The notes under the pieces were generated by a model. That model did not search any database. It was not told where the DNA came from and saw nothing but the letters and a program-made list of their open reading frames with translations. Positions 3,701 through 28,403 of a stretch of 64,000 nt of DNA are shown piece by piece. Position numbers and translations under genes: made by a program. Source of the DNA: Promethearchaeota archaeon Loki_b32 (GTDB lineage: Archaea > Asgardarchaeota > Lokiarchaeia > Sigyniarchaeales > SOKP01); NCBI GenBank assembly GCA_005223125.1, contig NJBH01000002.1:128001-192000 (forward strand), read 5' to 3'. How positions within the stretch are numbered: position 1 is the stretch's first letter; each line of letters starts with the position of its first letter.

Positions 3701-3706
3701 ACTTTT

Positions 3707-5353: not shown

Positions 5354-6599
5354 GTCTATAACCTCTTGGTGTTGCTTTTTTTCCTATAATTTCTTCAAAT
5401 TTTTTTAAATATAATTCTTTAAAATCTACTCGTGATAATTTTACTTCATTATCCACGGCTGTAAGCCATATATTATAATTTTCCAACCCGCAATATCCCG
5501 CTGAAATTAATTTTAATACTTCATTTAAATCAATGTCTATCAATTTTGGCCATCCAATATCTAATAGTCTTTTATTAATACCAAAATACCATGCAGGTAT
5601 ATCTATTCGCATTGGAGTATCAATTCGAGTTGGTAAAATATGAAATGATATGATTGCTGGAAAGTCCAGCATCTCAAAAATAATTTTTTGAGCGTGCTTA
5701 ATAAAATCTGGATCTTCAGATAACGTTGGGAAATTAGATTCAATAAATTGTCTAAAATTTGTTCTTATTAATTTTTCCGCTCGTCGCCATCTGGTGCTAG
5801 CACCTAATAATAATGGTTTAGTATATCCAGAATCCTTTGCGTTACTAAGAATTAATAAAGAATCGGGTTTCCTTGCGATTAATTCTTCGGTCAACAAGAT
5901 AATATCTTTATCTCTTATTGATTTTGCTAATTTGAATGCATTTTTTGGTCTATCCAACGCTTCTGAAAGAAGTCTTTTTCTCAATTTTTTATCTGAAATT
6001 TTCTCTTTTAAGATCTCCTTTATTAAGAATTCTCTATAAAAAGAGGTTCTACTCTCTTTACTAATCCCTATAAGTAAAATTCCCTTTTCTTTACATAATT
6101 TTAATAATTTTAAATAAATTTCAAAATAATCTAGGATAAATCCCTTATTATTTTCCAGTTTAAGTTCCAATGGTAAGTGAACCATTCTACCATAAAGAGA
6201 ACCATCAATTAATAATATACCTTCAAATTGTTTTTCAATAGCTTGAATTCCTGCTAAATGTTCCGTCCATTCCATTACTCTTCCAATAAAAGTTGATTGA
6301 GTCATAATATTAGAGAAGTCAAAATCCGTAAAAATGGTTCTATACTTATTTTTCTTACCTAATGCTAAAGCACGACAGACAAAAAAGAAGCCTCCATTTG
6401 ATGTTGGACATCTCCCTCGACTACTATCTATTGCTATGACATCTTGTTCAGGGATACAGGAGTCTAATTGATAATTTATCCAATGAGCTTTAAATTTATT
6501 TTCATAAAATTTATTAATTTTTTTGTCCTCAAAATTTTCTAAAATCCTCTTAGATTTAGTATTTAAATCTACGATGAATTCTGTTAGAAATTCTGGCAT
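5337..6599 (-). CDS. nurA: NurA 5'-3' nuclease
   Basis: AIDSS, LIDGSL, IGISKES and a C-terminal YNIWLTAVDNEVKL motif; overlaps the herA start by 17 bp. Confidence 0.88.
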   Translation of the reverse strand: MPEFLTEFIVDLNTKSKRILENFEDKKINKFYENKFKAHWINYQLDSCIPEQDVIAIDSSRGRCPTSNGGFFFVCRALALGKKNKYRTIFTDFDFSNIMTQSTFIGRVMEWTEHLAGIQAIEKQFEGILLIDGSLYGRMVHLPLELKLENNKGFILDYFEIYLKLLKLCKEKGILLIGISKESRTSFYREFLIKEILKEKISDKKLRKRLLSEALDRPKNAFKLAKSIRDKDIILLTEELIARKPDSLLILSNAKDSGYTKPLLLGASTRWRRAEKLIRTNFRQFIESNFPTLSEDPDFIKHAQKIIFEMLDFPAIISFHILPTRIDTPMRIDIPAWYFGINKRLLDIGWPKLIDIDLNEVLKLISAGYCGLENYNIWLTAVDNEVKLSRVDFKELYLKKFEEIIGKKATPRGYRRVRYP

Positions 6600-6791
6600 T
6601 TTATTATTATATTTTACATTTTTTTCAAATTTTTTGTCTTTAATATAAAGAATACAAATTCAATATTATTTAAATCTTAAAGCTTAATCTGTTAACTTTT
6701 CTTTGCCAAAACGGAATTTTTCCTTTTATATTTTTTTGATTAATGCCTCTTAAGGCTTTTTAGATTCAAATGAGCAATGCTTTTCTATTTT

Positions 6792-8270
6792 TTACATATA
6801 ATTGCTATATGCTGTAGGAGGTGTAATATCTCTACCTTTCAATTCTCCCATTATTTTTCCTACTTTTTTTGATACTGAGAGTGTAACGGGCATTCTTTTA
6901 CAAAAATCTGTGCTATTCCAGTCTAATTTTGTTAAATTGATTATATCTCTTGCTAATATTTCAGTATCACTATCACTTTTTTCTACAATTACTTCAATAG
7001 GTTTTGGTATCATACTACCTGGATATGTATCAAGACAAGGAATGTAACCAGTTGTATAAAGATTAAAGACTTTTTTATTATTGGAATTTCTTTCAAATAC
7101 AGAACCACGAGCTATAGGATAATCTGTTGAGGTAATTGCATTAAAATGACAATATTCTTTAATATGAATAAAATCTTGGATTTCAATATTTTTTGTTGAT
7201 TTTAAAAATCCTTCATTTTCTTCCTCAGTATATTCCGATTTTTTATGTACAACAATTCTATTAGGCTTACTATTATGGTGTTGTCTTTTATATAAGTTAA
7301 TAGCTTGGGACAAAATATCTTTTGCTTGTTCTTCTGTAAGATTGGTTCTTCTAATATCTTCTTCATGTTCAACTTTTAATTCTAAACCTCTAGCCACTTG
7401 AGAGTCACCAGTCCTCATATAGACCTGAGCTATAGCAGCTTTAATAACTACACTATCTCTTTTATTAATATCATAGTAAAATGAAATTCCAACATGAACA
7501 GTTTCAGGATTTAAATCAGCTAATTTCCAGGGAATACCTGAAAATTTATAATATTGGGCAACAACATAGTTCCAAGCAATTGAAGCAGGATCTTCCAAAT
7601 TCCCTCCTTTGAATTCCAATGTTTGAGGAAGCATTAATTGTGTTCGCAAATTCAACTCATATCCTAGAACTTTTATATAATTATGGAAATCATAAAATAT
7701 TGGACGTTCACTTTGATCCATTGAAGCTATTCTCTGTAAATCTCGAAAATTCCGATCGCTTAGTCGGATTTTCTTATCTTTTGTAAATGGATCTGAACAA
7801 GCTTCTAGAATTTTTTTAGGAATAGTAATAATAATAACAGGTCTTGGAAGATTTTGCCCACTCAAATCTTTCAGAATCTGCTTTATATGTTCTGAAAATT
7901 CAACAATTCTTTCATTTCGGTTAGCAATATTAAGAATTTTTTCAATATTTTGTGAAGAAATTTCTTGACAATAATTATCATCTTTCTCCATATAAAATCC
8001 TAACGGACCATCTTGATATAATCCTGGAAAATCAAGATTTCTTATATTTGAATTAGGATATGTCACACCTTCTATTGAATATTGTAATAAAGAAAGAAAA
8101 TCAATTGCCGCATTAATTGATTTTTTCGATCCAATTATTCCTATAGGAATTCTTAAATTATTATGTTCCAATCCATTTGGTTTATAATTTAATAATCCTA
8201 CTCTTGGATCAGCACATGTAGTTTTATCTCTGAAAATTAAATCCGGTTCTGGCACTAAAAACGATCTCAT
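6792..8270 (-). CDS. ago: Short prokaryotic Argonaute (MID-PIWI), catalytically inactive
   Basis: N-terminal PEPDLIF..DPRVGL, FPG motif, MID pocket FHNYIK..TQ..YYKFSGIPWKL (HK type), PIWI features YPGSMIPKP, LTKLDWN, MPVTL, C-terminal YM. Catalytic Asp positions replaced (VGISFY, VHKKS). No N/PAZ domains; 492 aa. Confidence 0.93.
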   Translation of the reverse strand: MRSFLVPEPDLIFRDKTTCADPRVGLLNYKPNGLEHNNLRIPIGIIGSKKSINAAIDFLSLLQYSIEGVTYPNSNIRNLDFPGLYQDGPLGFYMEKDDNYCQEISSQNIEKILNIANRNERIVEFSEHIKQILKDLSGQNLPRPVIIITIPKKILEACSDPFTKDKKIRLSDRNFRDLQRIASMDQSERPIFYDFHNYIKVLGYELNLRTQLMLPQTLEFKGGNLEDPASIAWNYVVAQYYKFSGIPWKLADLNPETVHVGISFYYDINKRDSVVIKAAIAQVYMRTGDSQVARGLELKVEHEEDIRRTNLTEEQAKDILSQAINLYKRQHHNSKPNRIVVHKKSEYTEEENEGFLKSTKNIEIQDFIHIKEYCHFNAITSTDYPIARGSVFERNSNNKKVFNLYTTGYIPCLDTYPGSMIPKPIEVIVEKSDSDTEILARDIINLTKLDWNSTDFCKRMPVTLSVSKKVGKIMGELKGRDITPPTAYSNYM

Positions 8271-8285
8271 TTTTTATCTCCTCTT

Positions 8286-9707
8286 TTAATTAAAAAATTT
8301 ATCTATTCTTGTATCATTAACTCCGATTGTTTTAGAGCTCCAATTGACTGTATGCTCCATCAAGGGCTTTATTATAAATTCATTAAACCAGGGATCTTTA
8401 TCTCGGCTAAAATAATCACTAGTTAAGAAATCGCTCCAAAATTCTAACCTAAGTCTCCAACTTGGATTTCTATTCCATTTTGGATTCAAATACTTTTTAT
8501 GTAGATTACTTGAATGGTCTCCTGTTATCGTATTTACACCATTTCTAGTAAAAATAAATCTAGGCCAAATAAATAAACCCATTTTACCATCATATTCATC
8601 TAATCGAATGAAAACAGATTTATGCTCAACATAATACAGTGTTCCATCTGGGCTATAAATTGGTTTAGTTACTGTTTTAATTTTTCTATTGGGTAGATTA
8701 ATTTTAATTGGTTCTACACTGCCCTTTGGTTTATCATCAATAGGTTCGTCATAAGCAAAGAAAAAATCACTCTCCCATCTTCTTAAACCTTTACACCACA
8801 AATATCTTCGTAATGATGTATAAAGTAATTCCCTTTTCCTCTGAATATCAAGCCTATCTGTATCATGGTCATATACTGGTCCTGAAATATGGGGTCTAAG
8901 AACATTCAGATTCTTCTCAAATGACCTTACAACTGGTTCAGGTGCTTCAAATCGTGGAACAACAAATTCAGGTAACCTTTGCTTTTCTTCAGATCTAACT
9001 CTGTCAATTATAGTCTTTTTAAGTTTGAATTTGGATTTAACTTGCCAAAATTTTTGCGGATATTGTAATTCCATAAAATTTAATATAAGATTGTCCTTTT
9101 CTCTCGTTGGATCTCTTCGATTCTTAATTTCTCTTAACAATCTTTTATGCTGTGAATTTAGATTTTTTCTAAAAATATCTTCTCTATCTCTTACTCGTTC
9201 GACTAAACCAAGTAGGGAACAAACCTTTACATCAGTATTTCTAAAAAACTCTAAAATTTCTGATTCATTAGCGGAATTTAACTTTTCTACTTTTTTCTCA
9301 TCAAAATTTAATCCTTCCTTATTATTAAACCAATTTAAAATTTCTTCCTTTTCTGCTTCCCTTGTTAATACTTTTTTAGTCTGATTTTTTTTATTAAATT
9401 TATTCGCAAAAATTACAAATCTAAATCTTCTTTCAGGTCTTAAAATTAACCAATAATAGAAATAGTCAAATATTTCGTGTCTAAGATTTTCAGATTTAGC
9501 AAAAATCGAGACTTGAGTATTTTTAGCTTCTATCCATAAATTTTCTTTCTTATTATCCATGATAATATCAGATAAAGTCCCCTCATTTAAGGAATTCTTA
9601 GTTAAATGATAACCTTGAGTTTGATAATACCTTATAATGTATTTTTTATATAATTCTGAATTATAATTACGAGCTTCTCTCTCTGATTCAAAATCTTCCC
9701 ATGACAT
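8286..9707 (-). CDS. PD-(D/E)xK (Mrr/REase-like) nuclease fused to an APAZ domain; effector partner of the short pAgo
   Basis: N-terminal SDIIMDNKKENLWIEAK (D..ExK). C-terminal APAZ-like segment VEHKSV..IWPRFIFTRNG..NPKWNRNPSWRLRLEFWSDFL. Lies 15 bp upstream of the pAgo with a GAGGAG SD in the gap. Confidence 0.85.
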   Translation of the reverse strand: MSWEDFESEREARNYNSELYKKYIIRYYQTQGYHLTKNSLNEGTLSDIIMDNKKENLWIEAKNTQVSIFAKSENLRHEIFDYFYYWLILRPERRFRFVIFANKFNKKNQTKKVLTREAEKEEILNWFNNKEGLNFDEKKVEKLNSANESEILEFFRNTDVKVCSLLGLVERVRDREDIFRKNLNSQHKRLLREIKNRRDPTREKDNLILNFMELQYPQKFWQVKSKFKLKKTIIDRVRSEEKQRLPEFVVPRFEAPEPVVRSFEKNLNVLRPHISGPVYDHDTDRLDIQRKRELLYTSLRRYLWCKGLRRWESDFFFAYDEPIDDKPKGSVEPIKINLPNRKIKTVTKPIYSPDGTLYYVEHKSVFIRLDEYDGKMGLFIWPRFIFTRNGVNTITGDHSSNLHKKYLNPKWNRNPSWRLRLEFWSDFLTSDYFSRDKDPWFNEFIIKPLMEHTVNWSSKTIGVNDTRIDKFFN

Positions 9708-9905
9708 TGTATCTTATTTTTTCATTTTTTTATAAGAATAAATTATACTTCCTTATGTTACTTATGTTGTATATTATATATATAAACTTTATGTCAAATA
9801 TATTATTATAAAAAATTACTAATCTTTGAAAAACTAAATCTTTAAATCTTAGTTTATCGAATTATTATAATGTAGATAATGTTGCTAATTTATTAATAAG
9901 TTAAT

Positions 9906-11948: not shown

Positions 11949-12584
11949 TTAAATTACTTTTTTATTAAGTTCAATTATTATTTCTTCAATCTTCTCTGTG
12001 TCATTAACAAAATTTTCTTTTTTATCATTCTCATAGATACCATGAATCCCTATTTGATATTTGTTTAGGATAGCAATAAGATCATATTCAGGATTGGTAA
12101 AAAAACATTGAAGGGTGATTAGATCATTTATATCAAAGTAATTTCTTATCATTTTTATTCTTCCTTTAACATAATCTGCCGTTCTATTGAATTCAGGTCT
12201 TCTATTATTCCATTCTCCTTGTTGAAGGATTTCAACTCTCCAAGCATGAGTAATTATTTCACTTCTCTGATTCATTTCATTTAAAAGATTAGAAATATAT
12301 TCTACGATCGTTTTCAAACGCAAGGTTTTATCTCTACTTTTCTTAAAGGAGTTAATATATAGGATAATAAAAGGGCTTATAATAGCAATTATTTGAATTA
12401 ATTCTGAGAACTCAATAAGATTATAACAACTGAATAATATAATTAAACCAAATATAGCTAAACCAATCAAAATGAATCTATAATAAATTTTAAGAATATT
12501 TATTAAATTATAATTCTTTTTTCTATCCTCTTTATGAAGTATTTTTTCTTTGTTATCTGTAGATATTTTGATCACGCCCTCCAA
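11949..12584 (-). CDS. Hypothetical membrane protein (2 N-terminal TM helices)
   Basis: 211-aa ORF with hydrophobic segments FILIGLAIFGLIILF and LIQIIAIISPFIILYI. Confidence 0.55.
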   Translation of the reverse strand: MEGVIKISTDNKEKILHKEDRKKNYNLINILKIYYRFILIGLAIFGLIILFSCYNLIEFSELIQIIAIISPFIILYINSFKKSRDKTLRLKTIVEYISNLLNEMNQRSEIITHAWRVEILQQGEWNNRRPEFNRTADYVKGRIKMIRNYFDINDLITLQCFFTNPEYDLIAILNKYQIGIHGIYENDKKENFVNDTEKIEEIIIELNKKVI

Positions 12585-13317
12585 ATATTAATGCGAATAT
12601 TAGTAATTTTATCTCTTTATTGTATATTTTTCCCTAATGTAATATATTTTTTTTGTATTAGCTTATAATACACACAATAGAAATTTATCTTTTTCCCATT
12701 TTCCTCGATATTTTTTATCTCAAGCTGTATTGCCTCTAACTACTAAGGAAAATGCGATACAACACCCTTTATCACCGTGTGTTGTCCTTTGTCTCGCTGG
12801 TGTCTCTTGTTATACCTAATTAAATAGGAAAAAGGCGAAACGGAATAAAAGAACACCTTAAGAAAGTCTTGATCTTCTTATCTTGCATTTTTTCTTCTTT
12901 TGAGCTTCCATGTGCGAGAAACAATTTCATTACAAAACTTTTTAAAAAATGCGAGCATATAATGGTTAGAAAGAAGTGATTTTACTCCAGATATCTTAAC
13001 TGAATATGAATATATGTCGCTTGTAGGCCTATATAAATATAATTACTTCTTTCTAATAAATTTAGCGGTGAATAATCTAATATTTTGATTTTATAAAAAT
13101 AATGCTTCAAAATCTTAATTATGCTATAAAAATAAATAGAATAAGTCACAGTTCATTAGGATTCAGGCTTTAAAATCCTTTGACACTGTTATATTATTTC
13201 TATTTTTTATTTAAATTAGGATAAATTATAATTTTTTAAAATCCTAAAAAATTATGGATTATAAATTTAAAAGTGACAATGTTTTTAAAAATAATAAAAC
13301 CAAATATAGAATGAATA

Positions 13318-14295
13318 ATGCTAGAAGAAGTAAATTCACATCGAAATATAATTGATTACATATTTCTATTACGGATTATGAAGTTCTCAAAATCAGGGCT
13401 TATTAAATTATTTCAAATTCCTACAATGGAGATATCTCGATTAAAATCCTTAAATAAAGAATTTTTAACTAAGATTCTGCTTACTAAAAAGAAATCAAAC
13501 CTAGAATATTTCAACAAAATTTCAAAACTATATGATTTTAATCCTAACGAAGAGGAATACTCTGAATTGGAGAAATTAGTTAAATATTGCATCCAGAAAA
13601 ATATTACAATTGCAACACCTTTCGATAAAAACATTCCTAAATTGCTTCAAATTTTGCAGCCCGGAAAGCGTGATTTAGTATTTATCAAAGGTCAGATTAT
13701 AGATAAAGATTTAAAATCTTACTCTATATGTGGATCTCGAACGCCAACAAAAGAAGCAATTACTAAGACTCGGCAAATCGCGGAATTGCTAGCTAAATAT
13801 AAATTCACGCTTATAAATGGTTTTGCAAAAGGTATAGATATTGAGGCTTTTATCGGAGCTAATGCGCAAAATGGGAGATATATAGGTGTTTTAGCATCCG
13901 GAGTTGAAAATGTTTATCCTAATGAGAATAAACAATATGTACAGTCAGTTATTAAAAATGGTGCCTTAATATCGCAAAATCTTTTATGGAATCGTATTAA
14001 TAAGTTCGCACTACAAATGAGAAACCGATTTTCTGCACAATTATCATTAGGTAGCATCTTCATTGAAGGTAATTATAGATCAGGAACGATATGGCAATAT
14101 AAATTTGCGAAAGAAATTATGCGCCCTGTATTTTATCTGGAGCCAGAGAATTGGAATCACGATAACACACATATTTTAAAGATTGTTAGGGATGGGGGCG
14201 GAATTGAAATAAAAAATGATCTTAGTAATATCAAAAATATAATTGAGATTTTAGAAAAGGAGTATTCTAAGAGAATGGAGAGCTTTAATGACTAA
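13318..14295 (+). CDS. dprA: DprA/Smf family DNA-processing protein
   Basis: ICGSR, NGFAKGID, GVLASG, VYPNEN, RNRF, EGNYRSGT motifs. Confidence 0.88.
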   Translation: MLEEVNSHRNIIDYIFLLRIMKFSKSGLIKLFQIPTMEISRLKSLNKEFLTKILLTKKKSNLEYFNKISKLYDFNPNEEEYSELEKLVKYCIQKNITIATPFDKNIPKLLQILQPGKRDLVFIKGQIIDKDLKSYSICGSRTPTKEAITKTRQIAELLAKYKFTLINGFAKGIDIEAFIGANAQNGRYIGVLASGVENVYPNENKQYVQSVIKNGALISQNLLWNRINKFALQMRNRFSAQLSLGSIFIEGNYRSGTIWQYKFAKEIMRPVFYLEPENWNHDNTHILKIVRDGGGIEIKNDLSNIKNIIEILEKEYSKRMESFND

Positions 14296-15010
14296 GAAAA
14301 TAAAGTTTGATTTTGGAATATTTAAATGCAGCGAAATTACATTGAATTCAATTCCGCTTATTAAAGGGAGATTCTCGCTAAATATCAATCCCAATTTTTC
14401 AAAAGAATTTAAGAGACCTTTCTGGTTTTATGATTTAACAAAAAGATTAAAAATTGATGAGGTTATTTCTTTGGGTGCATATTATCCCCAGAGGAATTTT
14501 AATAGTGATTTAGAAGGCACTCCTAATCTAAGATATCCTGCATTTTCAGATATTTTGTTCAATTCTAAGTCAGGACCATTGCATAGAGCTCGGAGCGATT
14601 ATATAATAGAGTCCAGAAAGCAGCAATTAAGAATAATTTCAAATTTTTATGCTAATTATTTGAAAAATGTAATTGGATCATTAAATTATAATGAAATAAT
14701 TCCTGTACCTGCTAAATTAGAGTATTCCTATAATTCAGTTGAAATAATTAGTATGGAATTTAGCAATCTTTTTAATATTCCAATGAATATAAGTAGGATA
14801 GCACGAATAGATGATTATACAAAGGAATACTCGATAATATGTGAAAATGATAATTTAAATCAGAGAAGAATATTATTAATAGATGATATTATTACTGATG
14901 GAGAAACTAAAGAGAAAATATTTTTCAGATTGAATGAAAAGGGTTGCAATAATATAGATATGATAACTCTCGCAAGAACGGATCACAATATCTATGAGTA
15001 TAATGAATAA
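14288..15010 (+). CDS. ComF-like phosphoribosyltransferase
   Basis: IIPVP and PRPP-binding loop RRILLIDDIITDGET; overlaps dprA by 8 bp. Confidence 0.82.
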   Translation: MTKKIKFDFGIFKCSEITLNSIPLIKGRFSLNINPNFSKEFKRPFWFYDLTKRLKIDEVISLGAYYPQRNFNSDLEGTPNLRYPAFSDILFNSKSGPLHRARSDYIIESRKQQLRIISNFYANYLKNVIGSLNYNEIIPVPAKLEYSYNSVEIISMEFSNLFNIPMNISRIARIDDYTKEYSIICENDNLNQRRILLIDDIITDGETKEKIFFRLNEKGCNNIDMITLARTDHNIYEYNE

Positions 15011-18430: not shown

Positions 18431-18434
18431 TATT

Positions 18435-18506
18435 GGGCCTATGGATTAGTGGAAGATCGTTCGCTTGGCATGCGAAAGGCCGCGGGTTCAATTCCCGCTA
18501 GGTCCA
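18435..18506 (+). tRNA. tRNA-Ala(GGC)
   Basis: Acceptor stem GGGCCTA/TAGGTCC with the G3:U70 Ala determinant, anticodon arm TTCGC-TTGGCAT-GCGAA, T-arm GCGGG-TTCAATT-CCCGC, discriminator A, no encoded CCA, no intron. Confidence 0.96.
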
Positions 18507-18724
18507 TTTCGGATTCTTATTATTGACAAATATACTCTAAATAAACCAATGAATCTTGTACATTGGTTAAAGTTTAAAAAAAAACCAATAATTTAATTAT
18601 CTAGTCTTAGGGTAAAAAGAAAAAAAGAGAAAAACTTAGAATTTCATCTTATCTTGTTCAATATCAAACATCCAACATTAAACTTCCATCATCAAACTTC
18701 CACCAATAAAAAAAAGGAAAAGAA

Positions 18725-19555
18725 TTAAAGATAATTTCTCTTCCTAGGTAGGCTGAATTGGTAATTATCCAGCATATCATTGAAAAGGTCTTTTCCAAAA
18801 CCCATTTCAAAGCATTCACCATGAATTTCCCTTCCTTCGATGGGACCTCCACTGGTTTTTTTGGCGATTTTATAGTTAAGAGCAAACAATTGTTGGATTT
18901 GTATAAGGAATTCCTTACTCCCACAAGTGATTCTTGAACTCCTAACTTTTCCATCACCGTCATAATAGCCAAGTAAAAATGCTAAATATAGCTCTCGACT
19001 ACTAAGTTTTGGTAATTGAATGGATTTGGATTTTGCTCGCCCAATTATAAACCCATGTTTTTCAAGGTTATTAGTAAATTGGGAATTGAGCAGTCTAATA
19101 CCGACTTTTGTATTGTATCGGTGTTTTTTGTATTTAGGATTGAATCCAATAGCATTAATGAATCGATCTATGAGGATCTCTTCTTTGATGCTAATCTCGA
19201 CTCCAAACCGAATACCATTTTTTTGCATAGACATCCATCCCTCTGCAAATAACCAACCAAGCCAATAAGCTTTTTCTTTGGTGTCAATAACCTTGAAATA
19301 ATCAAGATTAATGTTTGGGTGGAACTTGAAGATATGTTGATATTGTTTTTGAACATTCCCAGGACTCATAATATCACCTCTTTTTTTTAATTTGTATTTA
19401 TAAACCAAGGGAAGAGCCCAACGCCAACCGTGTGAAATAATTGAAGTTAGGGTCTTCCCTTGCTTCAAAATACTTGAGGTGATATTTTGAAGCCACGTAG
19501 AAGATATTACTAAATTTTCTCTTTTTTCTTTTTTAAATCGAGACCTGATAAGCAA
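18725..19555 (-). CDS. Free-standing two-motif LAGLIDADG endonuclease
   Basis: AYWLGWLFAEG and AFLLGYYDGDG motifs; the frame stays open upstream to ATA at 19714, so the start is uncertain. Confidence 0.85.
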   Translation of the reverse strand: MLIRSRFKKEKRENLVISSTWLQNITSSILKQGKTLTSIISHGWRWALPLVYKYKLKKRGDIMSPGNVQKQYQHIFKFHPNINLDYFKVIDTKEKAYWLGWLFAEGWMSMQKNGIRFGVEISIKEEILIDRFINAIGFNPKYKKHRYNTKVGIRLLNSQFTNNLEKHGFIIGRAKSKSIQLPKLSSRELYLAFLLGYYDGDGKVRSSRITCGSKEFLIQIQQLFALNYKIAKKTSGGPIEGREIHGECFEMGFGKDLFNDMLDNYQFSLPRKRNYL

Positions 19556-19837
19556 ATTTTGTGTAGAATCTATTGTTCTACAACACTTTTCAGGGCTCGC
19601 TCGGAAATTATTATATTGAGGGCTATATATTTGAGAATTGATTTTAACCGATTTTACATGGTGAAAATCATCCTCAAACCGATTGGATATTTCAAAATCT
19701 GCTGAAAGCGTTATTTAAAAACCCTAATTGAATAGTTGTCTCAGATTAATTTTTTCCGAGTTGTAATAAAGTAGAAAGAGGAGTATAAAAACACCACAAA
19801 AACAGAAAATATTATTGTAATAATTTTAATTTAGAAA

Positions 19838-19867
19838 GTGCAGAGGAGGGATTTCCCCTCCGTGCAC
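19838..19867. terminator. GC-rich stem-loop, possibly a terminator or RNA element
   Basis: GTGCA-GA-GGAGGG-ATTTC-CCCTCC-G-TGCAC in AT-rich intergenic DNA, ~100 bp downstream of the HerA-dsRBD gene; followed by TTTCT on the minus strand. Confidence 0.45.
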
Positions 19868-19963
19868 AATTCTTCCCTTGTTTATAGAAGGTGATATTTA
19901 CGACTCCTATAATATCATTATCAAATGAATATATTTAAACAAAAAAGTTTTTCGGGTCTAGTT

Positions 19964-21586
19964 TTATAAACCCAAAACGTCACACATCCTTTTAGCAGCG
20001 TCATTCTCAGCCAATTTTTTACTTTTTGCTTTTCCTATTATCGTATCATCACGATTTTTGAAAAATCCTTGAAAGTTATTTATATTTGTTCCTGGAACAA
20101 TGCTTAATTCTACTGTATAAGTGGGAGAATGATTTGGACCATCTCTATTTATCACTTTATAAATTGGCAATTTAAAATGGTTTTGTTGACAAAATTCGTG
20201 AAGTAATGATTTAGGATTTTTATCTCTATTATCTTTTTGAGCCAAATTTTTTATTAATTTTTCAAGACGAAAGAAATCCTCATCTCTATTTTGATTAGGA
20301 TTTTCAGTTTCAATTTTTAGAGTTTTAATATTTTCTTTTTTGACTTTAGGAAAAATCAAATCATTTTCTTCAAGTCTTTTTTCAATTTTAGGCGTTTTTT
20401 TTCTCAGCTTAACAAATTTGATTTTATCTTTAAGTTTTTTAAACCATAATGATTTATTCAATAAATTCTTCTTTGATTCAGCTTGATTAAAATCTCCATT
20501 TTCTTCACTTTCACTTTTCTGGAGTATTCTTTTATTATTAGCATTTATTTGGTCAAGGGTTAGCGAATGTCTTTTAATATATGGAATGTACAATAGAAAA
20601 GGTTTTTCAATCGAATTTACACGAATAATACAATAACCCATTTGTAGCATAGATAGGTATTCTTCATGTTCTTCATCAAGATTGAGTAGTTTACGCAATG
20701 TCTCTTTTTGCATATGGTTCTTAAAAGTAATTAACACTCCACAATTCGCTAAAATCTCTTCACTAACATCGGGACGTGTGGCAATAGTAATTAAGCATTC
20801 ACCAGTCCCTCTTAATAAAAGAGCAATATCTTCAATATAAGTCGAGATTTTAGTTTTGTCAGATAGTCCCCTGGGAGCAAAGTATTGAGCATCTTCAATA
20901 ATAGTCATATGTCTTATAGTTGTGTAGTCTTCCGAACCTTTAGATAAATTTTTATCCCATAAGTATTTTAAAATCATGTTTAAAAAGAATATAGCATCTT
21001 CTTTTTCTCCACCAAGGCGAATAATTGAGCTTAAATCAATAAGAATGTCTCTTTCAAATAATTTTTTTACATCTAATTTATTTTTTGTTTCAAAAATCGC
21101 CTTAATAGGACCAACAGAAAATCTTCTTATCCTATTTTTAACACTGATTATTGATTGGTCTAAAAATGGAATATTTCTTTTTTCTTTTTGAAGATATTCT
21201 TCGCATTTTTCGTAGAATCCTTCCCAACTCTGATATTCCTTGCTGCTACAAACTTCAGTTAAAATATCAACTAATACTTTTTGCATTTGAGGTGTAAATT
21301 CTGCGTGTGCTTCCAACATCTGGGCACTTTTAAAAATCGCAAATATTCTCTCTGCATGAACTTCGGGATTACTTCCTTCTGGATTAAAAATATTTATTGA
21401 AAAATTTTCTCCAGGTCTTATGATTAGTAGGTCATTGAGTTTCTCTTGTAAGAAATTGTATTCTCCTTTGAATTCTACAAGCATTATTGGTGTTTTATAA
21501 TGCTTTTTAAAATTCATTAAAAAGAATTGTAAAAAATTACTTTTTCCTGCTCCTGTTGAACCACATACAAACATATGTCGCTCCAA
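19964..21586 (-). CDS. HerA/FtsK-family (DUF87-like) ATPase fused to a C-terminal dsRNA-binding domain
   Basis: RHMFVCGSTGAGKS, VEFKGEY, IIEDAQ, ATRP; C-terminal NPKSLLHEFCQQ..GPNHSPTYTVEL..GKAKSKKLAENDAAKRM. Frame is open upstream to ATT at 21691. Confidence 0.85.
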   Translation of the reverse strand: MERHMFVCGSTGAGKSNFLQFFLMNFKKHYKTPIMLVEFKGEYNFLQEKLNDLLIIRPGENFSINIFNPEGSNPEVHAERIFAIFKSAQMLEAHAEFTPQMQKVLVDILTEVCSSKEYQSWEGFYEKCEEYLQKEKRNIPFLDQSIISVKNRIRRFSVGPIKAIFETKNKLDVKKLFERDILIDLSSIIRLGGEKEDAIFFLNMILKYLWDKNLSKGSEDYTTIRHMTIIEDAQYFAPRGLSDKTKISTYIEDIALLLRGTGECLITIATRPDVSEEILANCGVLITFKNHMQKETLRKLLNLDEEHEEYLSMLQMGYCIIRVNSIEKPFLLYIPYIKRHSLTLDQINANNKRILQKSESEENGDFNQAESKKNLLNKSLWFKKLKDKIKFVKLRKKTPKIEKRLEENDLIFPKVKKENIKTLKIETENPNQNRDEDFFRLEKLIKNLAQKDNRDKNPKSLLHEFCQQNHFKLPIYKVINRDGPNHSPTYTVELSIVPGTNINNFQGFFKNRDDTIIGKAKSKKLAENDAAKRMCDVLGL

Positions 21587-21795
21587 ATCATGAATTGATA
21601 AATAGAACGCATTTTTCTTTTTACCGTCTTTTACAATTTTCCCAAATTTTATATCTCCGTTTTTAGCTTCTGAAACTGCCTCTCTTAAAATTTATAAAAC
21701 GATAATTAGGATTAGCAAAAATCTTATATAGCTGTTTATCATTTAACTATTTAACATTTATACAGACAAAAATCAATAAAATTTATGAAAATAAG

Positions 21796-23511
21796 ATGAA
21801 ATCAAACATTCAAACTAAAAAAATTATAATGATTATAGGAATTTTTTTCGTTTTGTCAACCTTAATTTATTTTAATTCCAATTTCAGTACTGGAAATATC
21901 TATAGAAGAGATGTAAATTTAAAAATCTCACCTATTTCTGAAAAAATTATTATAATCGGTAATTCAGGTTGGGTTGATTTTAGGAGTGATGGAAAATGTA
22001 CTGGTTCAGGTACTTATTCCGATCCATATATCATAGAAGATTTAGTAATCGATGGAGGAGGATCGGGAAATTGCATCTGGATTGAAAATACAGATGTATA
22101 CTTTATAATTGAAAATTGTAATGTTTACAATTCATTAAATTACCCTAGTGCGGGAATCAAATTAAGAAGTGTTAATAACGGACAACTACTTGATAATAAT
22201 TGTTCGTCTAATCATTATGGAATATACATCGCTAATAGTAAGAATATCACTCTATCAGGAAATACGGCTAATGATAACCAGCATATAGGGATATATTTGA
22301 AGAAATGTAATATCACCACTACTTCGGGAAACACAGCCAATTATAATTATTATGCTGGGATAAGCTTATATTTGTGTAATAACATCACTACTTCGGGAAA
22401 TACAGTAAGCAATAGTGAACAATGGGGGATATTTTTCCATTATAGTAATAATAACACCATTTCGGGAAACACAGCCAATTATAATTATTTTGAGGGGATA
22501 TATTTAGAAAATAGCCATAATAACACCATTTCAGGAAACACAGCCAATTATAATTATTACGCTGGGATATATTTAACAAATAGCTATAACAATGCCGTGA
22601 TGGGAAACACTGTTAACAATAATAGTATATATGGTATAGGTTTAGATAATAGTTGCAAAGATAACACGATCTCGGGAAATACTGTAAATAATAATGAGAT
22701 ATCTTTAAATGGTAAGAACCACATTATTTCGAGCAATATTTTAAATAATACTGGATTAAGTGTATTTGGTCCAATTGAAGAACTTTGTTCCTATGATATT
22801 GATGTTACAAATCTTGTGAATGGAAACCCTCTTTATTATTACATCAATGAAATAAATTTAGGACCAAACAATTTTACGAATGCCGGGCAAGTGATATTGG
22901 TTAATTGTAGTAATTCATTAATATCCAACTTAGATATTTCTTATAGTTCTAACGGAATTTCATTATATTACTGTAATCACAATGATATCTTGGAAAACAC
23001 CTTAATTAACAATACTCGGTCAGGTATATGTTTATATTATTGTAACTATAATAATGTCTCGGAAAATACGATAAATAATAATATTTGGGGGGGGATATTT
23101 TTATATTACTGTACCTCTAACGAAATCTCGGGAAATATGGCAATTAACAATGACTATGGGATTTATTTTCAAGATAGTCATTATAACGATATATTGGGAA
23201 ATAATGCAAGTTACAATTTTTATGATGGGATACATCTACTTGATAGTCATAACAACTCCGTTTCGGGGAATACAGCAAATAACAATAAATGCGGAATATA
23301 TTTAGATTCAAGTGATAATAATATCGTTTCAGGAAATACAATATTAGGGAATGATATATGCATTGATGAACAATATTGTGATGGGAATATTTTTGAAAAT
23401 AATGATTGTGGTAAGAAAAAACCAACAATACTAGGATATAGTTTATTCTTTCTACTTGGCACTCTATCCGTTATTTTAATAATTAAGTGTAGAAAAATAA
23501 AGAAATTTTGA
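21796..23511 (+). CDS. NosD/parallel beta-helix surface protein with signal peptide and Loki-CTERM-like anchor
   Basis: GSGTYSDPYII, repeated GIYL..S.NN.ISGN units, C-terminal ILGYSLFFLLG..KCRKIKK. Confidence 0.85.
   Translation: MKSNIQTKKIIMIIGIFFVLSTLIYFNSNFSTGNIYRRDVNLKISPISEKIIIIGNSGWVDFRSDGKCTGSGTYSDPYIIEDLVIDGGGSGNCIWIENTDVYFIIENCNVYNSLNYPSAGIKLRSVNNGQLLDNNCSSNHYGIYIANSKNITLSGNTANDNQHIGIYLKKCNITTTSGNTANYNYYAGISLYLCNNITTSGNTVSNSEQWGIFFHYSNNNTISGNTANYNYFEGIYLENSHNNTISGNTANYNYYAGIYLTNSYNNAVMGNTVNNNSIYGIGLDNSCKDNTISGNTVNNNEISLNGKNHIISSNILNNTGLSVFGPIEELCSYDIDVTNLVNGNPLYYYINEINLGPNNFTNAGQVILVNCSNSLISNLDISYSSNGISLYYCNHNDILENTLINNTRSGICLYYCNYNNVSENTINNNIWGGIFLYYCTSNEISGNMAINNDYGIYFQDSHYNDILGNNASYNFYDGIHLLDSHNNSVSGNTANNNKCGIYLDSSDNNIVSGNTILGNDICIDEQYCDGNIFENNDCGKKKPTILGYSLFFLLGTLSVILIIKCRKIKKF
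22255..22600 (+). repeat. 69-bp (23-aa) intragenic tandem repeat
   Basis: TC(G/A)GGAAACACAGCCAATTATAATTAT at 22324, 22462 and 22531, with a diverged unit at 22393; period 69 bp. Confidence 0.8.
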
Positions 23512-23548
23512 AATGCTAAATGTAGGGTGTTATTTTACTTACCTATAT

Positions 23549-24073
23549 TTAAGAAGCATACTTAATCATACGCTGGGTTAATTCTCTGAAAGCTTCTTCA
23601 ACATTTTCACCAGTTTTAGCTGAGGTTTCAATATAAATACTATCTTTACCTTCTGCATATTCTCTTACAACTTTATTATCAATCGAGCGGCTAACATCTT
23701 TTACCAAATCTAACTTATTTCCTATGATAATAAAAGGAATATTTTCATTTAATATTCCAAACATCTCTGAAAGCCATTGTTCAATCTCTTCATATGTATT
23801 GAGTCTTGTAAGGTCAAAAATTATTAGAGCGCCTTGAGTTCCTTCATAGTATTGTTTATGCAAAAATTTAAACTTTTTCTGCCCCGCTACATCCCAAATA
23901 ACCAGTTTAGCAATGTTTTTTGATTCTAAAGTAATTTCTTTAATTAAATAGTTAATACCTATAGTTGTTATATAATCACGAGAGAATTCGTTCTTTACAA
24001 ACCGATATAATATGCTAGTTTTTCCTACAGCAGGAGCGCCTAATAATAGTATCTTAAAACTATATTGCTTCAT
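23549..24073 (-). CDS. Rab-like small GTPase (eukaryotic signature protein)
   Basis: GAPAVGKTS, TIG, WDVAGQ, NKLD, ETSAK; no C-terminal prenylation cysteines. Confidence 0.93.
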   Translation of the reverse strand: MKQYSFKILLLGAPAVGKTSILYRFVKNEFSRDYITTIGINYLIKEITLESKNIAKLVIWDVAGQKKFKFLHKQYYEGTQGALIIFDLTRLNTYEEIEQWLSEMFGILNENIPFIIIGNKLDLVKDVSRSIDNKVVREYAEGKDSIYIETSAKTGENVEEAFRELTQRMIKYAS

Positions 24074-24416: not shown

Positions 24417-27400
24417 GTGTTGTTTATGAGAAGATCTAGAAACAGAATTTCTTTTTTAATCTTATTAACCATTTTTTTCAGTTATTTTATAATTCCATTC
24501 ATTGGAACACGATTGAATAGTTCCAATCTTAATGATCAAAACATTAATAATGAAATAGATTTAAAATCATTGTCGTCCTCTCTTTCAAGCGGAATTAATT
24601 CAGATAAGAATAATTTAGAAAATTATTCAAGTTATCAGATTTCAAAATATGGAACAACCCTTAATAAATTTCTATCTAATATCACTTTAAACCATGACAG
24701 TAATCAAAAAGAGGTGAAAGTTATTGTTGTATTTGATAAATCCTTATCTAAAAAAGAGCATGTTGTTCTATTAGACTCAATTTTTGATAACTATAATTTG
24801 ATAAGCAACTATGATATAATTCCCGGTGCTTATATAAAACTCAATCCTAATCAACTTATTACAAAAAAAGATGTAATAGATGGTATTATATCAATTACTC
24901 AAATTCATAAATCGAATGTTTATGAGTTACCTTCTGTTTCAGATAATTCGGTACAATTGAGTGCGTTAGATAGTGGCGATTATTCTAACTGGTGGCTTTC
25001 TGCTATTGGTGCTGAAAGTCTCCCTTATGATGGCTCAGGTGTGAAAGTAGCTGTGATTGATACGGGAATTTACCCTCATCCTGATTTAACAATTATTAAT
25101 AACAGTAATTTTGTTGCTGATGAGGAGTTATGGGAATATGATGATAAAACTGGACATGGTACTCATGCTGCTGGAATTATTGGTGGTGATGGTGGTGGCT
25201 CTTCTGGAGAATATCGTGGCGTTGCTTCTGGTGTTTTGTTAATTAATGCAAGAGCAGGTAATGAAAGTGGATTAGATGAAGGAGATATAATAAGAGCGAT
25301 TGAATGGAGCTCTAAACCAACCCATTCGGGTGGTGCAGGAGCAGATATAGTATCCATGAGTTTTGGTGGGGTGTATCCTTATATTTCTGATCTTATTACT
25401 CAAGCAATCACAAACGCAAAAGATAACTTTGGTGTTATTTTTGTTTCATCTGCAGGTAATTCTGGACCGGAGTATTTTACTGGTTCAACTCCCGCTTCTG
25501 GTATTGATGTTATATCTGTAGGTGCTACAGATAGAAACGATAATCTGGCTTCTTTTAGTAGTTGGGGTCCAACTTTTCGGTATTTAGGGTTCCCTGATGT
25601 TGTTGCTCCTGGTATTAATATTATTTCCACAGATGCAAAGGATTCTACATTTTCCAAAGAAGAACGTTATAAAGACAACTATTTGGATTTTACAGATGAT
25701 GCAGATTATATTCCTCTAAGCGGAACGAGTTTTTCCTGTCCTATGGTTGCGGGTGCATTAGCAATTCTATTGGATGCGTATCCCAATATTACACCTGAAA
25801 CTGCTAGAATAGCTTTATTAGAAGGAGCAAGAAAACTTCCTGATGAAAATGAAATCGATATTCTTAAATCTGGAGCAGGGATGATAAATGTAACTGCATC
25901 CTTAGATTATTTAAACAGTATTTCTCCTGACTATAATGATACAGCAAAACTATTCCCTGATGATCTTCCAGTTAAACCTTATGATTTATTACATTTCCCG
26001 GGAGACCATCAAAAATTTAATTTAACTGTAATCTCTGGAGACGCTAATGATTTTGATATTGAAATTCCAACCTATATTCAAGGTGTATCTCTATCTATAG
26101 ATAAGTTAACGATTAATTTCTCTAACTCTGGAATTGATTTTTTAGAAATAGATATTGAAATTCAAAAAGATGCTATTCCAGAGATAAAGACATTTCAAAT
26201 TAACCTTACCATTGGAGTTAAAATTTATGATACTGCTGAGATCACATTAGATATTAGATTACCAGAGTATCGAATATTAATGGAATCTTTCCATGGATTA
26301 AATGATTGGTTTGCCGTCCCAAATTTTGGATACACTTTTTATCAGATGGGGTTTTATGAAGCTATGGCGGATCTTACAGATCTTAATATTTCGATTGACT
26401 ATAGCATGGAATATTGGACACCAGATTATAATAAGGATTTCGACAATTCAATTTTAACAGAAGAAAGATTAGCTCAATATGATATTGTTGTTTTACAAAA
26501 CCCAATCCTTCCCTATAGTCATGTAGAAATTGATAACATAGTAAATTACTATGAAGGTGGCGGTAATCTGTTATTTTTAGGAACTAGGTACCAAGATATG
26601 GTAGTGGAAAATATAAATTATTTATTCACCAGATTGGGAATAGATATTCAAATAAATGAAGAAAATGTAATGAATGATAACTGGCTTGGTATTGGAGCAA
26701 GTATAACTTCTCAAAGTGTATATAATTTTGATAATTCAGCGATTTTTAATGACGTATCCCAATTCTATTGGCTATATGGTAATAGTTTTACTATTTCTAA
26801 TAATGCTGAGTCTATCGCAACCATAGATAATAAAACAGTAGTGGCGCTTTATAATGGAACTGAAAATGGAAAAGGAAACTTTTTAGCTTTCGGAGATTTA
26901 AATTGGATTTACGATAAATATGATTCATCAGCTTATATTGATGACCATTCAAATTTATTAAAAAATATAGTCGACTTTTTATTACCCTCAAATGAAGTAT
27001 CTATCAACATAGAATTAGAAAAAGAAAGCACTTCAAATGGTGAAATTGATATCTCAATTTATTTGAAAAACCAAACCTCTGAGGCTCCAATTACAAATTA
27101 TACTTCTTTAACTTTAACAATTAAGAATGAAACATATCAAGAGTTGATTATATTAAATACAACATTTACAAGTGATGGAATATATTTCAATGAGTCATTT
27201 AATATTCCGTTTCCAAGTAATATACCTTATTCATTAATAGTAAATTTGACAATTGGTTCAATAGAATATAATAAAACCTCGAAAATTCTTTATTATAACA
27301 GTAATGAAATGCCACAAATTAATGATTTATCTGTTAGTGATATACAAATTACAAGAGTAGAATCAACATTATTGATTTCTGAATTAGATGATAACTCATA

Positions 27401-28403
27401 TAATGATTTTGAGGGGCAACTCTCTATTTATTCCTATTCATTTTATAATACTAAAAAATCTGTTAATAAAACTTTAACATTCAGTCATAGTGGTTCCAAT
27501 TATTATACTGCAACTTTCGACGCAGATACAGCTGATCCTTCTGGATATGCTATTCTTTATTTAGTACCGATGAATTCCAATTATACTGCTTCAAATTCAC
27601 CTAGAGCTCTTTTTCTAATTATTAATAATCCCCCCGAAATTATAAAAGAAAGTTCTACATTTGATCATGGTTCTTTTGATAGTACTGAATCTGATGATGG
27701 TTCATATGTTTATTCCGCAACTCAAGGCGATACATTTGATTTTGCAGTAGATGTGGAAGATACGGTAGCATATGAAGACGATAATTCTAATATGAGAGTC
27801 TTTGTAAACTTATTTATATATGTGACAGCAGGCGAAGGAACTATTATCGGTATAATTCCAAACACTTTTGAAGTTGCTGAGTTAAATTATCTTTCAAGCT
27901 CCGATAAATACGAAGGAACTTTTACTATACCAATTACTATGCAATATAGTACCATTGCGGGCATAAAATCTGTATCAACGGCAACTGAATTTGATACTTC
28001 CACCAATACTGGATATTTAGGAGTTCTCATTATTACTGCATATGATAGTGAAGGTGGATCTGATGAATTTACCATTATTTTAATAATTTCTGAACAACCT
28101 ATTGATTTTAGTTTTCTTATTATTATTGTATTGATAGTAATTGGTATCATTGGATTTGCGGGAATGCTTATTTATTTTGTAAAAAGGCAAAAGCGCCCTA
28201 AGATTACTCAATATCCGCCAATGTATCAAGATTATTATTACGAATCCCCAATTGAAAAACCAGAAGAAACTTATTTAATTCCCGATCCTTTATCTCATCT
28301 AGAACAATTTTATTGTCCTTTCTGTGGACAATTAGTAACACAACCAAAGAAATTTTGTCCACATTGTGGGGAATCTCTCACATTTAATGAAACAAATGAA
28401 TAG
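24417..28403 (+). CDS. Membrane-anchored S8 subtilisin-like serine protease with a cytoplasmic zinc ribbon
   Basis: Catalytic triad VIDTG, HGTH, SGTSFSCP; N-terminal and C-terminal TM helices; CPFCG..CPHCG. Confidence 0.92.
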   Translation: MLFMRRSRNRISFLILLTIFFSYFIIPFIGTRLNSSNLNDQNINNEIDLKSLSSSLSSGINSDKNNLENYSSYQISKYGTTLNKFLSNITLNHDSNQKEVKVIVVFDKSLSKKEHVVLLDSIFDNYNLISNYDIIPGAYIKLNPNQLITKKDVIDGIISITQIHKSNVYELPSVSDNSVQLSALDSGDYSNWWLSAIGAESLPYDGSGVKVAVIDTGIYPHPDLTIINNSNFVADEELWEYDDKTGHGTHAAGIIGGDGGGSSGEYRGVASGVLLINARAGNESGLDEGDIIRAIEWSSKPTHSGGAGADIVSMSFGGVYPYISDLITQAITNAKDNFGVIFVSSAGNSGPEYFTGSTPASGIDVISVGATDRNDNLASFSSWGPTFRYLGFPDVVAPGINIISTDAKDSTFSKEERYKDNYLDFTDDADYIPLSGTSFSCPMVAGALAILLDAYPNITPETARIALLEGARKLPDENEIDILKSGAGMINVTASLDYLNSISPDYNDTAKLFPDDLPVKPYDLLHFPGDHQKFNLTVISGDANDFDIEIPTYIQGVSLSIDKLTINFSNSGIDFLEIDIEIQKDAIPEIKTFQINLTIGVKIYDTAEITLDIRLPEYRILMESFHGLNDWFAVPNFGYTFYQMGFYEAMADLTDLNISIDYSMEYWTPDYNKDFDNSILTEERLAQYDIVVLQNPILPYSHVEIDNIVNYYEGGGNLLFLGTRYQDMVVENINYLFTRLGIDIQINEENVMNDNWLGIGASITSQSVYNFDNSAIFNDVSQFYWLYGNSFTISNNAESIATIDNKTVVALYNGTENGKGNFLAFGDLNWIYDKYDSSAYIDDHSNLLKNIVDFLLPSNEVSINIELEKESTSNGEIDISIYLKNQTSEAPITNYTSLTLTIKNETYQELIILNTTFTSDGIYFNESFNIPFPSNIPYSLIVNLTIGSIEYNKTSKILYYNSNEMPQINDLSVSDIQITRVESTLLISELDDNSYNDFEGQLSIYSYSFYNTKKSVNKTLTFSHSGSNYYTATFDADTADPSGYAILYLVPMNSNYTASNSPRALFLIINNPPEIIKESSTFDHGSFDSTESDDGSYVYSATQGDTFDFAVDVEDTVAYEDDNSNMRVFVNLFIYVTAGEGTIIGIIPNTFEVAELNYLSSSDKYEGTFTIPITMQYSTIAGIKSVSTATEFDTSTNTGYLGVLIITAYDSEGGSDEFTIILIISEQPIDFSFLIIIVLIVIGIIGFAGMLIYFVKRQKRPKITQYPPMYQDYYYESPIEKPEETYLIPDPLSHLEQFYCPFCGQLVTQPKKFCPHCGESLTFNETNE

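Follow-up and report, generated by a model that had tools for sequence, protein, structure and literature searches.

An FtsK/HerA-type ATPase with a fused double-stranded RNA-binding domain in Lokiarchaeia, followed by a candidate structured RNA

The stretch of Promethearchaeota archaeon Loki_b32 DNA analysed here (64,000 nucleotides, hereafter the window) carries on its minus strand an open frame, 21688-19964, that joins a DUF87 ATPase (Pfam, E = 9e-8) to a C-terminal double-stranded RNA-binding domain, or dsRBD (Pfam dsrm at 19973-20215, E = 6e-16, scoring 59 bits where the cut-off is 23). The ATPase core, of FtsK/HerA/VirB4 type, lies at 20570-21670, with Walker A at 21562-21539, a variant Walker B (E-D) at 20896-20891 and an arginine finger at 20812-20810; the first usable start codon in this allele is a TTG at 21586. 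Behind the core come a Lys-rich, largely disordered linker (20290-20557; pLDDT below 50 at residues 506-573 of the modelled intact allele) and an amphipathic helix (20225-20287 by alignment and comparison of tails; helix 575-595 in the model), which is the usual C-terminus of many members of the ATPase family. The dsRBD (19964-20215) is joined directly behind that last helix. A first-pass annotation had claimed such a fusion from the sequence, and the domain matches bear it out; the linker and the motifs IIEDAQ, LRGTG and ATRP that it had read are likewise present in the frame.

Five intact full-length alleles of 664-686 residues come from other samples (L002, L003, L006, L064 and L074), and contigs of independent runs span the linker and dsRBD at 97% identity (X1, over 20003-20556; also X4). 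Together these rule out an assembly artefact or read-through as the source of the fusion, a danger against which the first-pass annotation had itself proposed a check of read support across the linker and of the distribution in Asgard archaea. That distribution amounts to about ten Lokiarchaeia-type loci, and named homologs of the protein belong to Promethearchaeota/Lokiarchaeia; among 400 genomes of the phylum, the fusion occurs in the window's genome only, plus a remnant in G071, and a genome-wide search of the window's 4.1-Mb genome returns the fusion gene as its sole dsrm match. The fusion is thus rare and accessory. Because the fused ATPases form a single clade (SH-aLRT 99 in a quick tree) and their dsRBDs do so as well (99/99 in the dsRBD tree), the fusion has one origin; because four of the ten alleles are broken (the window's, L076/L077 with a TAA at codon 450, L252 and G071), the gene is dispensable. 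A viral origin was considered and rejected, since viral contigs hold no relative of the ATPase and only two distant matches to the dsRBD. The first-pass annotation did not recognise the architecture, and we found no report of it in paper searches whose coverage of the literature was incomplete; as far as those searches reach, the ATPase-dsRBD architecture is unreported.

The window allele is not whole. In intact alleles the first 113 or so residues contain three membrane helices, and one such allele (L064), whose core is 99.7% identical to the window's, keeps this anchor. In the window, similarity to all relatives ends abruptly at 21671 (blastn, five loci); two contigs of other runs (X1 and X4) depart from the window sequence at the same position, one on each side, and none of the contigs listed bridges the junction. 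What lies beyond the break point at 21671/21672, up to 21795, is sequence upstream of a divergent NosD-like gene, which replaces the three-helix anchor and the two upstream membrane-protein genes of intact alleles. A divergent NosD-like gene 9 kb upstream in L006 fits a deletion at 21671, and since the remaining frame shows few changes relative to L064, the break is recent or the product of a mis-join. On these comparisons the window allele is a 5′-truncated copy of a membrane-anchored ATPase, its junction being either a true deletion or a mis-join, and, stripped of anchor and partner genes, it is most likely a recently broken copy that would be at best a soluble RNA binder. We also considered a naturally anchor-less architecture and an upstream frameshift that would restore the anchor, and rejected both because no trace of an anchor is found upstream or elsewhere in the assembly. 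The earlier remark that the motor lacks the HAS barrel had therefore mistaken a truncation for an architecture. Anchor and truncation alike had escaped the first-pass annotation, as had the gene for a membrane partner and the structured RNA that follows the fusion, both described below.

The ATPase family to which the core belongs is found in 124 of the 161 genomes of the class and is near-universal in Lokiarchaeia. The vertical copy, flanked by the thermosome and YchF genes in two families, is present in the window's genome too, where the full-length, anchored paralog spans 12060-13832 of locus L007. Among 86 aligned members Walker A and the arginine finger do not vary, the E-D Walker B and the sensor Thr are universal, and E372, D373, Q375, R400 and T411 are likewise constant. 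The variant motifs that the first-pass annotation had singled out in its HerA-like motor are consequently real but family-wide, and there is nothing in them peculiar to the fusion. Structural alignment of the L064 model, whose mean pLDDT is 81, gives Z 28-29 with DndH-C, HerA and VirB4, and a RecA-like core with helical insert, Walker A and arginine finger places the protein in the FtsK/HerA superfamily. In the fusion core Walker B is E-D, against E-E in HerA, and Thr stands in place of the sensor Gln, its ATPase activity being presumed.

The resemblance to Sulfolobus HerA of the HerA-NurA system (PDB 4d2i) covers Walker A, the arginine finger, the Pfam DUF87 match and the fold of the ATPase, which superposes at Z 28.8 (rmsd 3.6 over 332 residues). 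In contrast to HerA, intact fusion alleles have three membrane helices in place of a HAS barrel; the fusion ends in a dsRBD, and no NurA, Mre11 or Rad50 gene lies beside it. The window's true HerA, encoded in an operon at 1-6599, reads E-E-A-H and T-Q-R where the fusion reads E-D-x-Q and A-T-R/H. The fusion is therefore not a canonical HerA: it has no HAS barrel, its Walker B and sensor differ, and nurA, mre11 and rad50 are not its neighbours.

A second parallel is offered by DNA-transfer machines. CedB and TedB of the Ced and Ted DNA import systems, TrwB/VirD4 and VirB4 are membrane-anchored FtsK/HerA-superfamily ATPases encoded beside small polytopic membrane proteins (PMC9905601), and the intact fusion alleles resemble them in both respects (VirB4 Z 28.4, TrwB Z 23.6), the anchor being lost in the window allele. 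Accessory copies of the ATPase often adjoin a membrane protein of about 205 residues with three or four helices (contigs of at least 15 other genomes), and a gene of this kind precedes the fusion in L003, L006, L064 and L076. A predicted complex of ATPase and partner scores 0.48 against 0.07 for the best control, which is weak support: of 80 solved pairs 58 came up to the mark, as did 2 of 110 mismatched ones, but at 0.60 or below only 7 of the 80 and both mismatches did so; at least 85% of contacts agree between runs, and the partner's pLDDT is at least 70. The best fold match to the partner has Z 6.2 and a VirB5/VirB6 stalk entry Z 5.6 (rmsd 4.2, 144 residues aligned), not above background, so that no clear match emerges among PDB representatives or the Atlas. 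Unlike the six or seven helices of the Ced, Ted and coupling-system partners, this one has three or four; no VirB6/CedA or pilin homolog is demonstrable (pilin-like leads stand at 0.80-0.82 only), and no relaxase lies at the fusion. Membership in a Ced or coupling system is not shown by these likenesses, and we know of no RNA-binding tail in Ced, Ted or type IV coupling systems.

The same evidence bears on one explanation of the locus as a whole, in which two independent passengers share a cassette: the ATPase would be a DNA pump like Ced or coupling proteins, working with its partner, the dsRBD a useful but general tail for contact with nucleic acid or protein, and the folded RNA behind the gene (described below) a protein-free leader of an endonuclease. 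Tails are freely swapped in the family, from a bare helix to zinc ribbons (26 of 86) and long helical domains; three membrane helices are present in 65 of 76 long members; the nearest folds are DndH-C, HerA and VirB4; and family copies reside in elements with RadA, Cdc6 and RPA genes. Against it stand the lack of a demonstrable pilin or VirB6 homolog and the conservation of the RNA-contact residues in addition to the fold, and we consider it somewhat unlikely. Among the other tails in the family, a helical C-terminal domain (residues 620-750 of P0006; also L127 and L128) looks HEPN-like, with a weak DUF4145 lead (0.81). Two loci, L119 and L120 (G084:C7 and G089:C82), combine RPA-like, Cdc6, RadA and AbrB-sized genes with the membrane ATPase and its 205-residue partner and resemble an integrated mobile element.

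The dsRBD is of type A, with an insert of about 14 residues between strands 2 and 3, as seen in its Pfam match, its model and its relatives. The model shows the alpha-beta-beta-beta-alpha fold (helices 599-609 and 664-679, strands 616-623, 630-636 and 656-661; pLDDT 85-96) with an inserted helix at 643-649. All three of the RNA-contact regions defined for dsRBDs (PMC11309768) are retained, as a helix-1 Glu and the motifs GPNH and KKLAE (GPxH and KKxA types), and the G, H, K, K and A are invariant in ten relatives. Between diverged alleles, dN/dS is 0.09-0.26 in the dsRBD, 0.03-0.11 in the core and 0.24-0.94 in the linker, from which purifying selection on the dsRBD is evident. Because canonical motifs and selection coincide, the domain is probably a working dsRNA binder; the clear C-terminal dsRBD reported at first pass holds up in fold, score, motifs and selection alike.

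As to its source, in a set of 1.8 billion proteins its best single-domain relatives are Promethearchaeota RNase III proteins of about 260 residues with the same loop insert, a feature common to the fusion and a Lokiarchaeia RNase III subfamily. The dsRBDs of Lokiarchaeia RNase III proteins encoded with NYN ribonucleases are likewise of type A, 40-48% identical to that of the fusion. Unlike RNase III, including the rnc product encoded beside the Asgard Argonaute HrAgo1, the fusion has no catalytic domain, sits on a membrane motor and shows no linkage to Argonaute. Judging from the shared insert and the search ranks, on which this call rests while the tree leaves the sister group unresolved, the dsRBD was taken from a Lokiarchaeia RNase III, once. 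Donor-type genes stand behind a NYN ribonuclease gene in defence-type islands in all three cases looked up, and one donor-type locus has the 205-residue membrane gene 3 kb away, so that donor and cassette do meet. The two-gene modules themselves (L108 9541-10780, L109 9580-10798, L111 9541-10801) are candidates for an RNA-cutting defence or toxin module. Elsewhere in the class, dsRBD matches occur in 25 of 161 genomes, mostly in RNase III (10 of 14 genomes in family f3, 11 of 134 in f1), and three loci of genus g2 (L016, L021, L024) hold lone dsRBD frames of about 108 codons, of the insert-bearing type and without a start codon, that are probably RNase III remnants. Between L002 (at 9464-9757) and L074 the dsRBD end has been exchanged by recombination: their ATPase cores are close (dS 0.16) and their dsRBDs far apart (dS 2.15).

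The fusion is one part of a variable cassette. Its order is a small membrane protein, the ~205-residue membrane protein, the ATPase-dsRBD gene, a structured element and a two-motif LAGLIDADG endonuclease gene (18725-19369, minus strand; Pfam LAGLIDADG_3, acidic residues of both motifs present) with a conserved ribosome-binding site at 19380-19375 and an ATG at 19369. The endonuclease gene follows the fusion in seven loci, and the succession of fusion, endonuclease gene and 3′ end of a tRNA-Ala(GGC) gene is found in the window, L064, L003, L074 and L077, and with a damaged tRNA in L002. In the window the tRNA gene lies at 18434-18507 on the plus strand, with the cassette's insertion site about 215 nt past its 3′ end. 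Since in G084 and G061 the site is empty, the tRNA flank continuing straight to a small GTPase gene (at 23549 in the window), the stretch from about 18725 to 23545 is inserted, with the stop codon of the endonuclease gene as its left edge. On the conserved flank of the site are the Rab-like small GTPase gene (23549-24073, minus strand) and a large membrane subtilase gene (24417-28403, plus strand). With its two-motif LAGLIDADG gene, fixed tRNA-proximal site and full and empty alleles, the cassette resembles tRNA-side free-standing homing endonucleases, and the pattern fits homing by a free-standing endonuclease, as in the T4-type cases. The endonuclease itself has been swapped, given that over 18725-19270 the window and L064 alleles are 61-77% identical inside flanks of 90-99% identity.

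The spacer of about 590 nt between the dsRBD stop and the endonuclease ATG holds, at 19360-19920 on the minus strand, an element of about 550 nt that folds at z -10.4 relative to shuffles in the window and at z -5.8 to -10.5 in seven loci, the sense strand always being the more stable, compared with -3.0 to +0.8 in five control stretches. In the consensus structure, 95.7% of cells are paired and 17 pairs are changed on both sides, a number reached by none of 500 shuffles and comparing with 1-3 in slid controls; the set is seven related sequences from which the structure was itself derived, and much of the change separates two subgroups. We take this covariation as strong but not formal proof. 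Rfam holds no match (chance matches only at E up to 10), exact-pattern scans of the genome and of viral contigs returned nothing, and DNA and covariance searches did not find the element in 134 other genomes of the family, many of them incomplete. Structured leaders are not a habit of this endonuclease family, 29 of 30 other loci folding at z above -5. In short, the element is a candidate for an undescribed folded RNA.

Its first part, a two-hairpin module followed by a T tract (19835-19910, by pair counts and pairing probabilities), stands behind the dsRBD in all nine assessable loci and is single-copy in the genome. Hairpin 1 contains an anti-Shine-Dalgarno segment (19894-19886) predicted to pair either locally or with the ribosome-binding site of the endonuclease gene. 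That site is predicted to be paired in all seven loci (P 0.67-0.99), opening it would cost 4-14 kcal/mol, and in three of the seven its partner is the anti-Shine-Dalgarno segment some 520 nt upstream. One locus, L253, an early branch in the dsRBD tree, keeps the fusion and the two hairpins and has lost the remainder of the element and the endonuclease, a circumstance that favours separate passengers. Conversely, the nearest endonuclease without a fusion (G076, 84% identical, at the same tRNA) also lacks the element, which speaks against a leader that belongs to the endonuclease alone.

The 3′ two thirds of the element are a relic. At 19370-19714 (minus strand) a group II-type reverse transcriptase gene (RVT_N) has left its first ~115 codons, open, in frame with the endonuclease gene and now part of long stems. 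Covariance model R1 of the element matched reverse transcriptase genes, the translated relic matches them with an HMM E of 2e-17, and Pfam finds RVT_N in the L074 relic at E = 0.0035; descent from a group II-type reverse transcriptase gene follows from this RVT_N relic. The same stretch folds at z -0.7, 0.2 and -2.8 in intact reverse transcriptase genes and at -2.8 to -6.6 in the relic. Since the intact genes are unfolded there, the stems are new, formed after the gene decayed. The relic has dN/dS of about 1, on which ground we rejected a selected protein in this frame. Across seven alleles it nevertheless holds no stop codon where about 20 would be expected, and its indels are whole-codon only; these features, together with the frame shared with the endonuclease, suggest that ribosomes probably still traverse it.

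Group II introns carrying LAGLIDADG genes are known (PMC13190283), and the cassette is like them in that a reverse transcriptase gene is succeeded by a LAGLIDADG gene in a folded RNA. Unlike them, it has no ribozyme domains (I-VI, domain V), its folded part is decayed coding sequence, and it lies outside a host gene; only about 200 nt precede the relic, and over 18500-20000 and in L074 no group II intron RNA family is found at the gathering score or at E up to 10. By these sequence features the element is not a group II intron. Group II-type reverse transcriptases occur at L246 8277-10955, L247 1023-3494 and L245 7378-8751, with no Rfam intron RNA around them; two of the three carry fused treble-clef zinc-finger repeats and end in a nuclease-like part. 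The copy in G031 follows a tRNA and an ATPase gene of the fusion's family.

A retroelement-derived RNA that closes on itself, next to a protein with membrane anchor, ring ATPase and substrate tail in the manner of coupling proteins, raises the thought of an RNA-transfer module, in which the dsRBD would load cassette RNA on the motor for pumping by way of the partner proteins into another cell or vesicles, and the endonuclease message would start homing there. The cassette can be copied at a cut site only from DNA, however; the window's genome contains no reverse transcriptase of the relic's type, and no channel homolog could be demonstrated. We regard this module as highly improbable.

The wider neighbourhood has the look of a defence island. 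At 1-9707 (minus strand), genes for a REase-APAZ protein and a short pAgo are followed head to tail by nurA, herA, mre11 and a Rad50-like gene, and a DprA and PRTase pair lies at 13318-15010 (plus strand; PADLOC ShosA, with weak ShosT/PsyrT matches). A cassette set amid restriction, SMC-like and STAND genes, a donor RNase III that keeps company with a NYN RNase in defence islands, and the service of HerA-type motors in defence complexes could mean that the dsRBD is a sensor that detects foreign dsRNA, from an RNA virus or from antisense pairs of mobile elements, and switches motor and partner to an abortive state. Like Sir2-HerA, DUF4297-HerA, TdpAB and DndH, the fusion has the motor fold (Z 23-29) and an island location. 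Unlike them it has a membrane anchor. No conserved effector gene is recognisable beside it, PADLOC matches on the ATPase are confined to the generic P-loop region (HerA/mad8 models) and are absent from the partner genes, and the parent gene belongs to the chromosomal core, flanked by the thermosome and YchF genes. A sensor of this kind seems to us decidedly unlikely.

The first-pass annotation had also proposed a part in the handling of Argonaute guide RNA. An Argonaute is indeed present (6792-8270), a short pAgo with the REase-APAZ partner, but at 11.7 kb from the fusion, not the ~10 kb given, and on the far side of the tRNA insertion site. Neighbourhoods of rnc, Argonaute and helicase genes have been described in Asgard archaea (10.1101/2023.12.14.571608) and, with the proximity in the window, are what can be said for such a pathway. 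No Argonaute or APAZ homolog occurs in eight other fusion loci (1.6-19.8 kb, several of them short), where the first-pass annotation had suggested looking for co-occurrence, or in the donor RNase III loci; in L064, the 99%-identical allele, a type I restriction gene takes the place of the window's Argonaute and defence island; and the fusion lacks the RNase III catalytic domain. Short pAgo proteins are not, to our knowledge, users of dsRNA-derived guides, and a guide pathway is scarcely credible here.

The reading that we tentatively prefer is that the dsRBD binds the neighbouring RNA and so ties control of the endonuclease to the motor. The intact protein would be a ring motor bound to the membrane, with a flexible tail that selects the substrate in the manner of coupling-protein tails. 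Its dsRBD would bind A-form stems of the RNA encoded directly behind its own gene, an RNA in which the ribosome-binding site of the endonuclease gene would stay paired; the ATPase-dsRBD protein, holding or remodelling this RNA, would set when the DNA-cutting, cassette-spreading endonuclease is translated, and it may hold the endonuclease transcript at the membrane. Transcription of the element, its binding by the dsRBD, activity of the motor and control of endonuclease translation are all steps that we infer, and we think of them as possible rather than probable. In favour of this reading we count the single-clade fusion, the retained RNA contacts, the folding and covariation of the element, the two-hairpin module in nine of nine loci, the absence of the element from the fusion-less G076 locus, the paired ribosome-binding site and the adjacent membrane partner. 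On the other side are L253, the four broken alleles of ten and a covariation drawn from seven relatives. Since fusion and element are of one origin, their co-occurrence is one event, not nine, and cannot prove a partnership; and since dsRBDs bind dsRNA without sequence specificity (PMC11309768), nothing forces a target in cis.

Prokaryotic dsRBDs are almost always RNase III tails, whereas the eukaryotic domain is a free module, found on helicases, kinases and deaminases. The Asgard fusion shows the domain leaving RNase III in traceable form, with the donor subfamily, the junction and selection all readable. Taken in full, a mobile Asgard module in which a captured dsRBD redirects a membrane motor to a dedicated RNA made from a dead reverse transcriptase gene, which the motor binds, remodels or transports and through which it controls a homing endonuclease, is in our estimate unlikely. 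We know of no member of the FtsK/HerA superfamily that remodels RNA; were the motor RNA-directed, it would be the first, and among the prokaryotes nearest to eukaryotes a dsRBD from RNase III would have been turned into a modular adaptor. The candidate RNA built its stems from a decaying protein-coding gene while the frame stayed open, and dsRBD and candidate ligand RNA are both small enough for tests in vitro. A tail that names its substrate class would also give a handle on the function of a near-universal, uncharacterised membrane motor of Lokiarchaeia.
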